A DNA stretch of 64,000 nt, taken from positions 51,522,001 through 51,586,000 of the forward strand of contig OZ024750.1 of assembly GCA_964016885.1 (NCBI GenBank), given 5' to 3'. Under the pieces are notes generated by a model. The model was not told the DNA's origin and made no database searches. It saw only the letters and a list, made by a program, of their open reading frames with translations. Shown in pieces: positions 11,879 to 58,779 of this stretch (positions are counted from its first letter, which is position 1; each line of letters starts with the position of its first letter). Source of the stretch: Eledone cirrhosa. Taxonomy: Eukaryota. A program made the position numbers and the translations under genes.

Positions 11879-12104
11879 GTATTACATTTCATCTAGTTGT
11901 GTGCCGAAACAATTGTAAAGACTAAATGGTTTAAGAAATCTCTCCCATCTTAATATGTTATACCTGTTTTGTTATGTTTCAATGTGCAATGGGATTAACG
12001 TTATCAGCTTAATGCTCGGACACAGAAGGGATTTCCTGAGGTCAACTGAGGAGCTGTGACTGTCGTCAGATCATATTTAGAATATATATATGTATATATA
12101 TATA

Positions 12105-13191
12105 TAGGATAAAGTATGACCCCGACGGCAGAGCTCAAGCCGTTTCGACGGCTATTTCTGGACTAAATTCGGCTATTTATTTACCAGACAAAATATTCTA
12201 ATTTAGTCCAGAAATAGCCGTCGAAACGGCTTGAGCTCTGCCGTCGGGGTCATACTTTCTCCTATATATATATGGAGATTAGGAGAATAAAAAAATGAAA
12301 AACTAAGAGAAAGATATAAAAAAATATAAAATTGGAAAATGAGAAGTGATAAAAAACAAAGAGTATAGAGTCTAAAACAGCTGCTATTGGTTGGTGTTTT
12401 TTTTTTTTTTTTTGCTTACAACAAATTTTGACCAATCCTCTTGACACCTACAATTTTCCCATATACGGAAGTACCCCTTGAAAAGTTCGGCTATTTATTT
12501 ACCAGACAAAATATTCTAACTTTTCAAGGGGTACTTCCGTATATGGGAAAATTGTAGGTGTCAAGAGGATTGGTCAAAATTTGTTGTAAGCAAAAAAAAA
12601 AAAAAAAACACCAACCAATAGCAGCTGTTTTAGACTCTATACTCTTTGTTTTTTATCACTTCTCATTTTCCAATTTTATATTTTTTTATATCTTTCTCTT
12701 ATTTTTTCATTTTTTTATTCTCCTAATCTCCATTGATTTATCCATTCTATAACGTCCCTCCTCCGTTTTCTCCAGAAACCTTTTTTCGCCTACCTCTTCT
12801 GGCCTACTTTCATACACAATCCTTAGAATTTCCCGTATAGATTTCACTTTCAACACTTGACCGGCTCCACCTACTCCCTCATTGTTCTACAAGCAAGTTT
12901 AGCCACTCCTACCTCCCACCCACTTCCATGATAAACTTATTTGTGTTTAGAACAAATTTTGACTAATCCTCTTGACAACTACAATCTTCCCATATACGGA
13001 AGTATCCCTTGAAAAGTTCGGCTATTTATTTACCAGACTAAAAATTCTAATTTAGTCCAGAAATAGCCATCGATACGGCTTGAGCTCTGCCGTCGGGTCA
13101 TACTTTCTCCTATTACCCACTCTACTACCCTAAGTATTGTGTACTCTGGTGCATTATGGTCCATCTGGCTCCTTACCACAACTCCTTCGTT
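12105..13191. mobile_element. Rearranged Penelope-like/retrozyme-like non-coding element (U3-A8 hammerhead family): two hairpins plus a direct copy with 3' tail
   Basis: Inverted repeats 12105-12264 and 12272-12733; homologous to 39861-40852, 56638-56693 and 58592-58779; flanked by (TA)n. Confidence 0.75.
13004..13098 (+). ncRNA. Type I hammerhead, U3-A8 variant core, probably inactive copy (GATA instead of GAAA)
   Basis: ATCCC-TTGAAAA-GTTCGGCTATTT..AAATAGCCATC-GATA-CGGC ttgagctct GCCG-TC-GGGT. Confidence 0.65.
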
Positions 13192-13906: not shown

Positions 13907-13940
<34 letters not shown>

Positions 13941-14086
13941 CGAAGGAAATGTGGTAAGGAACCAGGTGGACCATAACTCACCAAAGTACTCAATACTTGG
14001 GGTAGTAGAGTGGGTAGATATAGATATATATATATAGATATATATATACTCAATACTTGGGGTAGTATATAGATAGATAGGTAGAT

Positions 14087-39721: not shown

Positions 39722-39874
39722 TTAGTATATCTAATGATATACGGTATGTTTACGAATAAATATTTGTAAGCCTTGTAGCTATGAATATTGGAAAGCAGCC
39801 GGCTAGCTAGCGCTCCCTAGCGGATTCCAGCAGAAGTATATATATATATATATATATATATAGGAACGAGTAGG

Positions 39875-39970
39875 ACCCCGACGGCTGAGCTCAAGCCGTT
39901 TCGACGGCTAATTCTGGACTAAATGAAAATGTTTATCCTGGTATTTGAATAGCCGAGCTTCTCAAGGGGT
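39875..39970 (-). ncRNA. Type I hammerhead with U3-A8 variant core, intact
   Basis: Minus strand: ACCCC-TTGAGAA-G..CGGCTA..TAGCCG.C-GAAA-CGGCT tgagctc AGCCG-TC-GGGGT. Confidence 0.8.
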
Positions 39971-40662
39971 AATTCCATATATGGAATATCAAATTTTCAT
40001 TTACTTCGTACGAGCTTTTATGTAGTTTGCACTAGAACTTTTGTATCGTGGCGGCACCCTTAGAGATAGTATTAGTATTCTTTTTCGGGACTCTGAATTA
40101 TTATTTCGTATTAGTTTACTTGTTTGCACTGGGTGGTTGCTGGCCTTGTGCCTGGGGTAGAAACCCTTATTTATTATTTCGTGGTAGTTTCTTTAGTATT
40201 TTGGCCCCTCACTTGTTGACCCGTCACCGTAAGATATACTCGTTTTTTTACTTATACCTCTTAAAAGGGTCGCATTATAATTCCGTCCCACCTATATATA
40301 TATATTTTTAGTCCAGCAGTACCAGTGAGAGACTTAGGTTGTAATAACCAGAAATTGTTTTTGTTTTTTTACATTTAATTGCTTTTTAACACTCTCAGTA
40401 TTTTTATATATATTTACCCCTTATTGTTCTACTTATTGTTCCGACTTCCTCCCCTCCCCTAGTATCTTCTTTGACCTCATGCCCAGCTGTAGTCGGCACT
40501 ATCAACGCATGAATGGGTCTCCTCCACCCCCTCTCCCTCTTTCTCCTACTGGCAGGTTTAGCTACCCCTTCCCTCCACAAATTGCCAACATAGAATTATT
40601 ATGTCTCAACAATGAACTTTTGACCAATCCTTGTGACAATCACTTTGACCATATATGGAATT

Positions 40663-40758
40663 ACTCCTTGAGAAGCTCGGCTATTCAAATACCAGGATAA
40701 AAATGTTCATTTAGTCCAGAATTAGCCGTCGAAACGGCTTGAGCTCAGCCGTCGGGGT
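40663..40758 (+). ncRNA. Type I hammerhead with U3-A8 variant core, intact
   Basis: ACTCC/GGGGT stem I, TTGAGAA 40668-40674, GAAA 40731-40734, GTC site 40751-40753. Confidence 0.8.
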
Positions 40759-40849
40759 CCTACTCGTTCCTATTACCCACTCTACTACCCTAAGTATTGA
40801 GTACTTTGGTGCGTTATGGTCCAACTGGTTCCTTACCACATTTCCTCCG

Positions 40850-40908
<59 letters not shown>

Positions 40909-44497: not shown

Positions 44498-44697
44498 TTC
44501 AAATACACTTTTGCATTATCTCGATCAGAGACAACATTGTTTTAAATATATATATATATATATATATATTTATCTATCTTTGCACTCGGCCCTTGAAAAA
44601 ATTGATTCCACTTCATTTACTCTCATCTCGGGAACAGTTTTGGATAGCGCTAGTTCGTAATTTAAATTCAAGATTTTATATTCTTTGAATGAAAAGA

Positions 44698-44781
44698 ACC
44701 TTCTGACGAGAATCTTTCTTTGCAACGAAGGCCGTATGGACTCCGTTTATTTTTGAGATTCGAAACCGATTCGGTAAAGGT
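44698..44781 (+). ncRNA. Canonical type I hammerhead ribozyme
   Basis: ACCTT/AAGGT, CTGACGA, GAATCT/AGATTC, GAAA, CCG att CGG, GTA cleavage triplet. Confidence 0.88.
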
Positions 44782-44871
44782 CACTATAGTAAGTAAAGTT
44801 AATTTTTTTTTATTTATTTTGAAACTTTTTCCTTATTTGCTAAACCTTGATTATATATATATATATATATA

Positions 44872-49057: not shown

Positions 49058-49137
49058 TCTCTCGGACAGATTGGGGATAATCTGTTTCGCCCTGAGTGTG
49101 TTTGTAACAGATAATCCTGGGCATCATCAGCGAGAGA
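49058..49137 (-). ncRNA. Canonical type I hammerhead (antisense arm)
   Basis: Reverse complement of 49292-49371 with intact core. Confidence 0.88.
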
Positions 49138-49291
49138 ATCTGATTAAATGCGACAAACACCTAGTATCAACGTTCACACAGAAAGATAAATTTATCCCCT
49201 CGTGCGCCGTAAGTCAAAAGTGGTATGAGTGTATTGGTTAGAAACAACAGTGTGAACGTTGGTACTAGGTGTTTGTCGCATTTAATCAGAT

Positions 49292-49371
49292 TCTCTCGCT
49301 GATGATGCCCAGGATTATCTGTTACAAACACATTCAGGGCGAAACAGATTATCCCTAATCTGTCCGAGAGA
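49292..49371 (+). ncRNA. Canonical type I hammerhead
   Basis: TCTCTCG/CGAGAGA, CTGATGA, GCCC/GGGC, GAAA, CAGATT/AATCTG, GTC triplet. Confidence 0.9.
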
Positions 49372-49535
49372 TGTAATTGTTATTGAGGCGGTTTGTATAA
49401 TATAATTTTATTTTATTTCATCATTCTGTCTGCTTCATGGTTAAATATTTCAAACAAATGTGGTCTTTCAACCCTTGTAATATTAGACACACGGTTTACT
49501 GATTTACTGTGTTTCTTACTACATATATATTATTA

Positions 49536-56625: not shown

Positions 56626-56637
56626 GTGAAAATTTTA

Positions 56638-56693
56638 AACCCCGACGGCAGAGCTCAATCCATCGAAACGGCGTGAGCTCTGCCGTCGGGGTC
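56638..56693. mobile_element. Minimal fold-back remnant of the U3-A8 hammerhead family within (TA)n
   Basis: ACCCCGACGGCAGAGCTCA..CGAAACGGCGTGAGCTCTGCCGTCGGGGT. Confidence 0.75.
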
Positions 56694-57234
56694 AAACATA
56701 TATATATATATATATATATATAGTTAGGGAAGCAGAACATTGCTTATTGTGATCCAGTTCGTGGTTAAGAAAGCCAGTTTCATGGATGGTTTCAACGTAG
56801 GGTTAGGGTAACTCCACAAGTTTGTAAGAATTCCGTTCAATCTTGGAGTATAAAGTATAAAAGAGAAAAGAGAAAACACAGGTAAGCATTAAGAGAAGGA
56901 TTTTATCCAGGTATGTACGACCGTTTCATTGGTAAGTGCAACCTTATATTGCTATACTGCAAATAGCAGCCACTCAATTATAATTGTTGTTCACAGTCCA
57001 AATTTTCAAAATAGTGAGTAAGTTACTCTTGAAATAGTTCTTAATATATAGAGAAAAACATTTTTTGGGAATTGTATTTACTAGTATAGAGAGAGTGGAA
57101 TTAGAAGGTGAGGGGACAAACGGAATAGTATAGAGAGAGAGGAAGGGGGAGAGTATACAGTAAATAGAAATACAACATCGAAATCAAACAAGTCACGCAG
57201 TAGAAAATATATTTGGTATAACCCCATATTTAAC

Positions 57235-57400
57235 ACCTCTAATAGTACTAACCTACCCTCTCCCTTCTTTAGAATAATAAATAAGAACTTTCCAGATTCA
57301 TACAGATACAGCAAAATCCTTAACACTAAATCTATTAGACTATCTTACACTACGGCACCAAATATAGAGGCTCACATTAAGATGCTTAATGCTAAAAAGA
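57235..57400 (+). pseudogene. Possible Penelope-like ORF fragment (RT to GIY-YIG linker region)
   Basis: Translates RIINKNFPDSYRYSKILNTKSIRLSYT, resembling the PLE motif KHFP..H....IFN..T.K.SYS. Confidence 0.45.
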
Positions 57401-57661
57401 TACCAGAACACAAATTTACAACACTAACAATACAATCACCATTGAACACAACAGAATATCTAATACACAACCACCCGCTAATAGGCAAACAAAACGTAAC
57501 ACACTTGTACAGGCATCGCAGCCCACAAATAATGCCAAAGTTGCCCATGACAAGAATTGTAACTGCCACCTACCTGAAACCTGTCCATTACAAAATGAAT
57601 GCATGCAGTCTAACCTGGTTTACCAATGCACAGTGGAATCAGACAACCAGGTGATGATATG

Positions 57662-58572: not shown

Positions 58573-58591
58573 ATATATATATATATATATA

Positions 58592-58779
58592 TAGGAAAAA
58601 GTATGACCCCGACGGCAAAGCTCAAGCCGTTTCGACGGCTATTCCCAGAAATAGCCGTCGAAACGGCTTGAGCTCTGCCGTCGGGGTCATACTTTTTCCT
58701 ATTTCCCACTCTACTACCCTAAGTATTGAGTACTCTGGTGCGTTATGGTCCATCTGGTTCCTTACCACAATTCTTTGTT
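58592..58779. mobile_element. Short fold-back plus tail of the U3-A8 hammerhead family (3' half of the ribozyme only)
   Basis: Arms of about 52 bp around CCCAGA, followed by the family tail. Confidence 0.82.

Follow-up and report, generated by a model that had tools for sequence, protein, structure and literature searches.

A Hydra-clade Penelope-like element of Eledone cirrhosa with a U3-A8 hammerhead terminal repeat, a ribozyme that is probably weak and dispensable in cis for copying

The locus analyzed here lies in a 64,000-nt stretch of the Eledone cirrhosa genome (3.0 Gb), referred to below as the window, and raises the question of what a hammerhead motif with U3-A8 in place of the canonical C3-G8 does for the mobile family that carries it. 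We consider it probable, with some reservation, that the locus is a fold-back copy of a Hydra-clade Penelope-like element with a type I U3-A8 hammerhead as terminal repeat, and that this ribozyme is likely weak and likely unneeded in cis for copying. The role of the hammerhead in Penelope-like elements has been called unclear (PMC8557442), and the family amounts to a natural experiment on it: one lineage appears to have passed through U·G, U-A and C·A and back to U-A at positions 3 and 8. Each core state left tens to thousands of dated copies, and four natural RNAs can be compared with their genomic success.

The focal insertion and the element it belongs to

As originally predicted, stems I, II and III, the GAAA and the GUC are all present in hammerhead register, forming a type I motif at 40663-40758 (Table 1). 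Stem I pairs ACTCC with GGGGT (40663-67 with 40754-58), the C>T change being private to the forward arm, as the inverted arm has ACCCC. G10.1-C11.1 is found at 40675/40730, GAAA at 40731-34, and the 6 bp of stem III (40734-39/40747-52) enclose the loop TGAGCTC, with the palindromic GAGCTC that had been noticed there. The TTGAGAA core occurs in both arms, at 40668-74 and, on the minus strand, at 39965-39959; the inverted arm carries a complete U3-A8 motif and stops at the "short" 3' end (CCTA), in (TA)n, and 66 of 98 sampled insertions have an inverted short-ended arm like that of the focal copy.

Table 1. Features of the focal insertion and of related copies in the window.
Feature	Position	Strand	Basis or remark
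Inverted arm	39860..39984	-	blastn, 97.6% over 125 nt, reverse copy of 40649-40773
5'-truncated 3' UTR of Penelope-like element	39987..40662	+	88-96% alignment to other copies
Stem I, 5' strand	40663..40667	+	ACTCC in focal copy, ACCCC in family
Core positions 3-9, TTGAGAA (U3, N7 = G, A8)	40668..40674	+	sequence and genome variants
Stem II and long variable loop	40675..40730	+	G10.1-C11.1, small internal loop, CGGCTA/TAGCCG; RNAalifold consensus
TTAGTC initiator-like motif inside loop II	40711..40716	+	5'-end distributions, TYAGTY consensus
GAAA, 6-bp stem III with palindromic GAGCTC loop, GTC triplet	40731..40753	+	C17 = 40753
Stem I 3' strand and distal stem I, to "short" 3' end at CCTA	40754..40773	+	
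79-nt "tail", beginning of element 5' UTR; "long" 3' end in (TA)n	40774..40852	+	
Short fold-back copy without 5' core	12104..12265		
Older TTGAAAA-subfamily copy, GATA replacing GAAA	12874..13192	+	
Tail-only fragment	13938..14016	-	
Very short fold-back remnant without 5' core	56633..56693		
Typical short fold-back copy with tail, beginning just downstream of the inferred start site, without 5' core	58591..58773		

The focal copy lacks an ORF. Because other copies aligned with its 3' UTR continue into an RT/GIY-YIG ORF, and because this ORF is immediately preceded, in tandem copies, by the hammerhead and the 79-nt tail, the locus is, judged by its organization, a 5'-truncated fold-back Penelope-like insertion with the inverted arm and optional tail known for such elements. 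The element unit measures ~3.3-3.5 kb, with the ATG of full copies 190 nt after the cut site and two alternative 3' ends (short and long), both ending in (TA)n. Its single ORF (717 aa from the ATG) contains an RT with YRDD followed by a C-terminal GIY-YIG-like VIYQC..AYIGLT, as well as SDKTGN (DKT), RLRWR (RWR, with R for the K of RWK), the CxCX5C linker CNCPDRSIC and the CxxC/CxH arrangement around E and N (CNLC..E..N..CKH); compared by eye, it is colinear with Hydra-1_Obim and no CCHH finger was seen in it. We retrieved 2,067 protein homologs, the best match carrying PF01541 (GIY-YIG), while a Pfam scan of six ORFs gave no match for the family's own ORFs and a PDB sequence search returned nothing informative.

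These features are shared with the Hydra clade as described for Hydra-1_Obim and others by Craig et al. 2021 (PMC8557442; clade features and (TA)n targeting are defined in its section 11), which reports DKT, RW[K/R], CxCX5C, CxxC/CxH around E and N, a C-terminal GIY-YIG, (TA)n insertion, partial tandems, an inverted 5'-truncated arm, an optional tail and a type I hammerhead at the 3' end. The Hydra-type insertion traits are all found here ((TA)n target, pseudo-LTR, inverted arm, tail), and what had been described as an amplified mobile family can be identified more completely, by sequence comparison, as an autonomous Hydra-clade Penelope-like element. It differs from the published Hydra elements (PMC8557442) in its ~50-nt stem II domain, 5-6 bp stem III, 79-nt tail and longer unit (theirs is generally <3 kb). 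The clearest departure is in the hammerhead itself, as 26 of 26 Hydra rows in File S2 of that paper are canonical CUGANGA with short loops, while the focal family has U3-A8, C3·A8 or U3·G8; a canonical hammerhead is reported there as universal in Hydra, though not as a clade-defining trait, and in the focal family C3-G8 occurs in 7 of 3,566 matches.

Since 148 of 148 scored tblastn candidates from a genome search are 94-100% identical, many of them having a frame open over 784 codons and some arranged in tandem at a spacing of ~3.54 kb, the family appears to be young and is probably active. Head-to-tail arrays of the youngest subfamily with a period of ~3.54 kb and open frames (L211-L213, G000:C2:320548748-320559606, and L217/L221) are candidate source loci. 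A non-LTR retrozyme, a non-autonomous element of non-coding tandem monomers with a hammerhead in each (bioRxiv 10.64898/2026.07.22.740005), was rejected as an identity, since the repeat unit carries an ORF. Other Hydra-like families with 33-48% protein identity were found at L032:3971-6358, L027, L038, L039 and L043, with canonical hammerheads belonging to other families in several loci. Near-identical 9-kb blocks (98-99%) with the element and other retroelement ORFs, at L033, L034, L036 and L041 (C27 and C20), are segmental duplications, and therefore some copies are not independent insertions.

The original prediction counted at least four loci using the variant in the window. Related loci do exist, among them two of the TTGAAAA subfamily (12478 and 13009) and the tail fragment placed at 13940-14016, but besides the two focal arms only 13009 has a full-length motif, a mutated one with GATA, which makes three; locus 12478 has the 5' half only. 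An Rfam scan of the window (E<=1) returned 144 matches and 0 to hammerhead families, in agreement with the expectation that CUGANGA searches miss the variant. Several neighboring features deserve mention. A palindrome of TTGAAAA-subfamily sequence with arms of ~250 bp (12270-12735, centered near 12520) lies beside two other copies as a complex multi-jump insertion. A different family has left an inverted pair of canonical CTGATGA type I hammerheads at 49059-49138 (-) and 49291-49372 (+), a (TA)n-flanked fold-back with a 7-bp stem I, a long stem II and a stem III of 6-7 bp, which Rfam also misses. Another canonical hammerhead-like type I motif, CTGACGA with a long stem II, is located at 44696-44783 (+). 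At 57214-57644 (+) lies what is left of another Hydra-like ORF, which has 38-43% identity to the family protein and terminates in (TA)n.

Core positions 3 and 8 across the genome

An exact pattern with positions 3, 7 and 8 left free gave 3,566 genome matches in which 10.2 is a pyrimidine and 2,216 in which it is a purine (5,782 in total), against 0 for the reversed control patterns. The motif is far beyond chance, and the claim of a U3-A8 core in an amplified mobile family is borne out. The accompanying statement that only N7 differs while U3 and A8 are kept holds within the window but not genome-wide: C3·A8 accounts for 1,464 of the 5,782 matches, all of them in the 3,566-match set, and U3·G8 marks a distinct older subfamily, with G8 in 11 of 11 copies of a G8-enriched sample. 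Position 8 is not A in 58 of the 3,566, divided by eye into 25 U3·G8, 7 C3-G8, 1 A3·G8 and 25 with C or T. Canonical C3-G8, the state named beforehand as contrary to the prediction, makes up those 7 of 3,566 fully scored matches. All of the 100 matches listed from the 2,216 are U3-A8, and with the second set judged from these 100, the complete motifs are ~73% U3-A8 and ~25% C3·A8.

Is C3·A8 then a property of the template or of single copies? At position 3, 20 inverted arm pairs comprise 13 U/U, 5 C/C and 2 discordant pairs, and since C3 is common to both arms in 5 of the 7 C-bearing pairs, it was apparently mostly in the template. C3 contributes 75,083 of a summed depth of 176,932 at 40668 in Logan contigs; there, no variant at position 3 or 8 reaches 8% in the oldest CCGG-loop subfamily, as expected of U3-A8. 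Trees were built with the core removed, for 111 copies and separately for 39 chosen copies. They form a ladder of U3·G8, U3-A8, three C3·A8 grades and then a U3-A8 clade (support 100/98) that is nested in the C3·A8 grade and includes the youngest subfamily along with the focal copy. Missing element flanks in several rows make the root weak. Divergence from the subfamily majorities falls roughly in ladder order (6.7%, 4.3-4.4%, 3.3%, 2.7% and 2.0-2.8%, in non-random samples), and 0 of 79 complete copies are chimeras between subfamilies across the inferred strand-transfer region. Comparison of the subfamilies in this way shows a succession of U3·G8, U3-A8, C3·A8 and again U3-A8, one change at a time, with the stems and the other core bases fixed. 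It consists of only three substitutions, all transitions, the last one reverting C3 to U3.

The U3-A8 core is by itself not new. It had been called a rare tolerated variant; in Penelope hammerheads it was published in 2014, with ~1,300 matches in Schistosoma (Cervera and de la Pena 2014, PMC4209133), and natural U3-A8 covariation was reported, with earlier in vitro activity cited, by Perreault et al. 2011 (PMC3088659). The Schistosoma Cercyon hammerheads share with the focal family the U3-A8 covariation in a pseudo-LTR, a long helix II, a conserved G10.1-C11.1 and a palindromic loop III (PMC4209133). However, the U3-A8 hammerheads of both papers were found by a minimal descriptor with little or no helix III, while the focal helix III is stable, and the focal lineage, unlike them, appears to have passed through amplified non-Watson-Crick 3-8 states. 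No report of an amplified C3·A8 lineage appeared in the literature searched, a search with the key biochemical papers outside it, and the available text of PMC7151607 and PMC3884650 gives no cleavage rates for U3-A8, C3·A8 or U3·G8. What is new, as far as sequence comparison goes, is the dated natural series of core states, including an amplified one that is predicted to be dead, together with a predicted start site that splits the ribozyme.

The hammerhead fold and a competing hairpin

The RNAalifold consensus of 15 real copies has stems I, II and III in type I order, with the structure paired in 84.9% of cells. Of the covariation proposed as a check, three pairs show two-sided change, but all of them come from a single old copy, 21 of 500 shuffles score as high, and stems I and III are invariant. 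The same copies are well paired in a rival fold, the hairpin AGCCGU-CGAA-ACGGCU of the internal CGGCU/AGCCG repeat (95.4% of cells, one two-sided change). Because the two-sided changes are few and from one old copy, and because this rival is so well paired, covariation offers modest support only for the hammerhead fold. The lowest-energy prediction for the focal copy is the rival hairpin (-27.1 kcal/mol, against -23.1 kcal/mol with the hammerhead imposed as a constraint; shuffle z = -0.37), which is favored by 1-9 kcal/mol in this and several other subfamilies, and the hammerhead is the favored prediction in the young and TTGAAAA subfamilies. The youngest and most intact subfamily is U3-A8, has the 10.2-11.2 pair repaired and has the hammerhead as its lowest-energy fold.

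The bases expected of a catalytic core are conserved beyond this. Over nine subfamily majorities, U4, G5, A6, A9, G12, A13, A14, A15.1-U16.1 and H17 (the GAAA and GUC) are invariant and N7 is variable, taking all four bases among the genome matches. In the 5' half, 17 of 21 columns do not vary, against 44 of 189 upstream columns (~40 of these being end gaps), and the four that do are 3, 7, 8 and 10.2; distal stem I and loop II vary among subfamilies. These patterns bear on the possibility that the motif is a catalytically dead fossil, retained as promoter sequence and as a structured element for RT binding or priming, with no subfamily able to cleave. The preference of the focal and several other subfamilies for the rival hairpin, its better pairing across copies (95% vs 85% of cells), the fact that canonical C3-G8 was never amplified (7/3,566) and the overlap of the hammerhead 3' half with the inferred leader and promoter would all suit a fossil. 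We nevertheless hold it to be quite unlikely, since invariance of U4-G5-A6, A9, GAAA and GUC around a free N7 is the pattern of a catalytic core, two-sided changes number 3 for stem II against 1 for the rival fold, and loop II and distal stem I vary freely.

The GAGCTC of loop III is retained while neighboring loop bases change, which fits a role in dimer or end-to-end pairing; hammerhead dimers are discussed in PMC4209133. The TTGAAAA subfamily rules out a shifted register (CUGA-GA, lacking N7), since it has no G there, and no locally permuted hammerhead was seen by eye within the leader.

Copy ends, the predicted start site and the role of cleavage

Most copies lack the 5' half of the motif. 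The 3'-half pattern has 49,288 genome matches against 5,782 for the 5' half, a rough ratio given the different pattern lengths, and among 99 consecutive copies on C1, 83 begin within 24 nt upstream of 40728 and 13 hold the whole core. For 98 tail-anchored arms, the start lies 35-45 nt upstream of the cut site in 55, nearer to it in 33, at 51-60 nt in 2 and beyond 100 nt in 8, and the 66 inverted partners have an identical 5'-end peak. The upper edge of these short-copy ends is sharp and falls on A40713 within TTAGTC, which has the equivalents TCAGTC or TTAGTT in other subfamilies. All subfamilies conserve TYAGTY within an otherwise variable loop II. TYAGTY is the initiator consensus, with A as +1, of Drosophila (PMC6483594), an origin that weakens its use here. 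An internal promoter is known from Penelope (PMC2377424), and that of Drosophila virilis Penelope, like the one proposed here, lacks a TATA box and has its initiator within the terminal repeat (Schostak et al. 2008, PMC2377424). In that element transcription starts upstream of an intron ending at the helix I 5' end, so the ribozyme lies wholly downstream (PMC2377424, PMC4209133), while the start of the focal family would fall inside loop II. We thus regard A40713 as the likely transcription start of the element RNA. An AT-rich TATTCAAA / TATTTAAA, at window positions 40682-40689 and equivalents, lies 29-31 nt upstream of this start and overlaps the stem II 5' arm; it is a possible TATA-like element.

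For the short copies, the ends could also mark a pause of the RT on a long RNA, at stem II or at an inner hairpin, with no transcription start involved, an explanation with an appreciable although minor chance of being correct. An AU-rich hairpin does have its 3' edge near 40716 in several subfamilies, and the ends spread over ~10 nt. However, the edge falls on the identical A in subfamilies with different inner hairpins, and a stem II block would stop the RT ~10 nt earlier. Longer copies were taken from 50 loci selected by their ORF (3 of them duplicates and 4 with no alignment across the ORF start), which yielded 25 distinct copies reaching upstream of the cut site; only 1 of them stops at the inferred start site and 24 pass into the upstream pseudo-LTR, which argues against a simple structural roadblock.

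With a start at A40713, inside loop II, the 5' leader would hold only the 3' half of the hammerhead. The element RT may then prime internally at two sites of the leader, which lie 20 and 99 nt past the GUC, before running off the RNA 5' end, so that approximately nine in ten copies would be fold-back stubs of 60-140 nt. Long copies of the focal type would come from tandem read-through or from circular RNA, where a 3' UTR precedes the leader. The fold would persist chiefly because it serves the RT as an RNA element and lets the leader pair with the 3' end, and the U3-A8 subfamilies would at most cleave 3' ends slowly. With their tight 5' ends, the ~50,000 stubs support internal priming near the RNA 5' end on the scale of the genome, and they predict the start to the base. 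The closest parallel is PAc (Poseidon, Anolis; Frangieh et al. 2024, PMC11167929), which has, like the focal family, a hammerhead near the ORF 5' end and AT-rich targets, and in which two internal RT start sites define the tail and insertion in vitro is reported not to need the hammerhead. PAc differs in having a canonical hammerhead core that overlaps the start codon, while the focal hammerhead ends 190 nt before the ATG and would be split by the inferred start.

That cleavage is probably weak and dispensable in cis is suggested because positions 3 and 8 changed singly while the stems stayed fixed, and because a natural CUGANAA hammerhead from Schistosoma, on a different, minimal scaffold, did not cleave (PMC8490949). 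Its dispensability in cis is also likely because roughly a quarter of the complete motifs carry a core mismatch that is predicted to be inactive; we infer that cis cleavage was not needed during the C3·A8 phase. Penelope insertion in vitro was likewise unaffected by hammerhead mutants (PMC11167929). Several observations speak against this reading. The lineage reverted from C3 to U3, as far as the tree can be followed, the youngest U3-A8 subfamily, with its repaired 10.2-11.2 pair and predicted minimum-energy hammerhead, fits selection for a working ribozyme, and a succession of only three transitions may be due to chance. Moreover, C3·A8 RNAs could be cleaved in trans by co-expressed U3-A8 RNAs.

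The same start site allows a different use of the ribozyme, to which we give a small weight. A start in loop II would put one half of the hammerhead in the 5' leader and the other half 3.4 kb away at the 3' end; the leader half would be held off as the AGCCGU-CGAA-ACGGCU hairpin until the ends joined via the palindromic GAGCUC of loop III, and the hybrid core would decap and circularize the RNA, which would turn from an mRNA into a template. Tuning of the 3-8 pair to less than its canonical strength (as U·G, U-A or C·A, but never C-G) would set the frequency of this event, and the ~50,000 stub copies would be failed strong-stop products.

Against a weak and dispensable ribozyme stands finally the model of Cervera and de la Pena, in which a fully functional and required hammerhead cuts tandem transcripts at the GUC and the unit-length RNAs circularize and template the long copies, which exceed one unit. 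U3-A8 would then be an equivalent pair, with C3·A8 rescued in trans through the palindromic loop III or an element protein. This model is unlikely to our mind, yet several observations favor it: U3-A8 is natural and active in vitro (PMC3088659), the PAc hammerhead is protein-assisted (PMC11167929), GAGCTC is kept while flanking loop bases change, the youngest subfamily is predicted to fold as a hammerhead, and the passage of 24 of 25 ORF-bearing copies from the leader into the upstream pseudo-LTR is what a circle would give. Tandem read-through, however, explains the long copies too, and about a quarter of complete motifs coming from C3·A8 sources, in three subfamily grades, counts against it. 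The ends at the cut site point both ways. Of the 98 arms, 7 have their end at most 1 nt from G40754, where 1.7 would be expected (Poisson p = 0.002), as required cleavage would predict. But among 100 of 1,375 junctions, selected for short forward arms and classified by eye, the 9 of the cut-site class do not exceed the numbers at other microhomology-favored positions (7 each at +14 and -8), and 6 of the 9 share a GG microhomology with the inverted arm.
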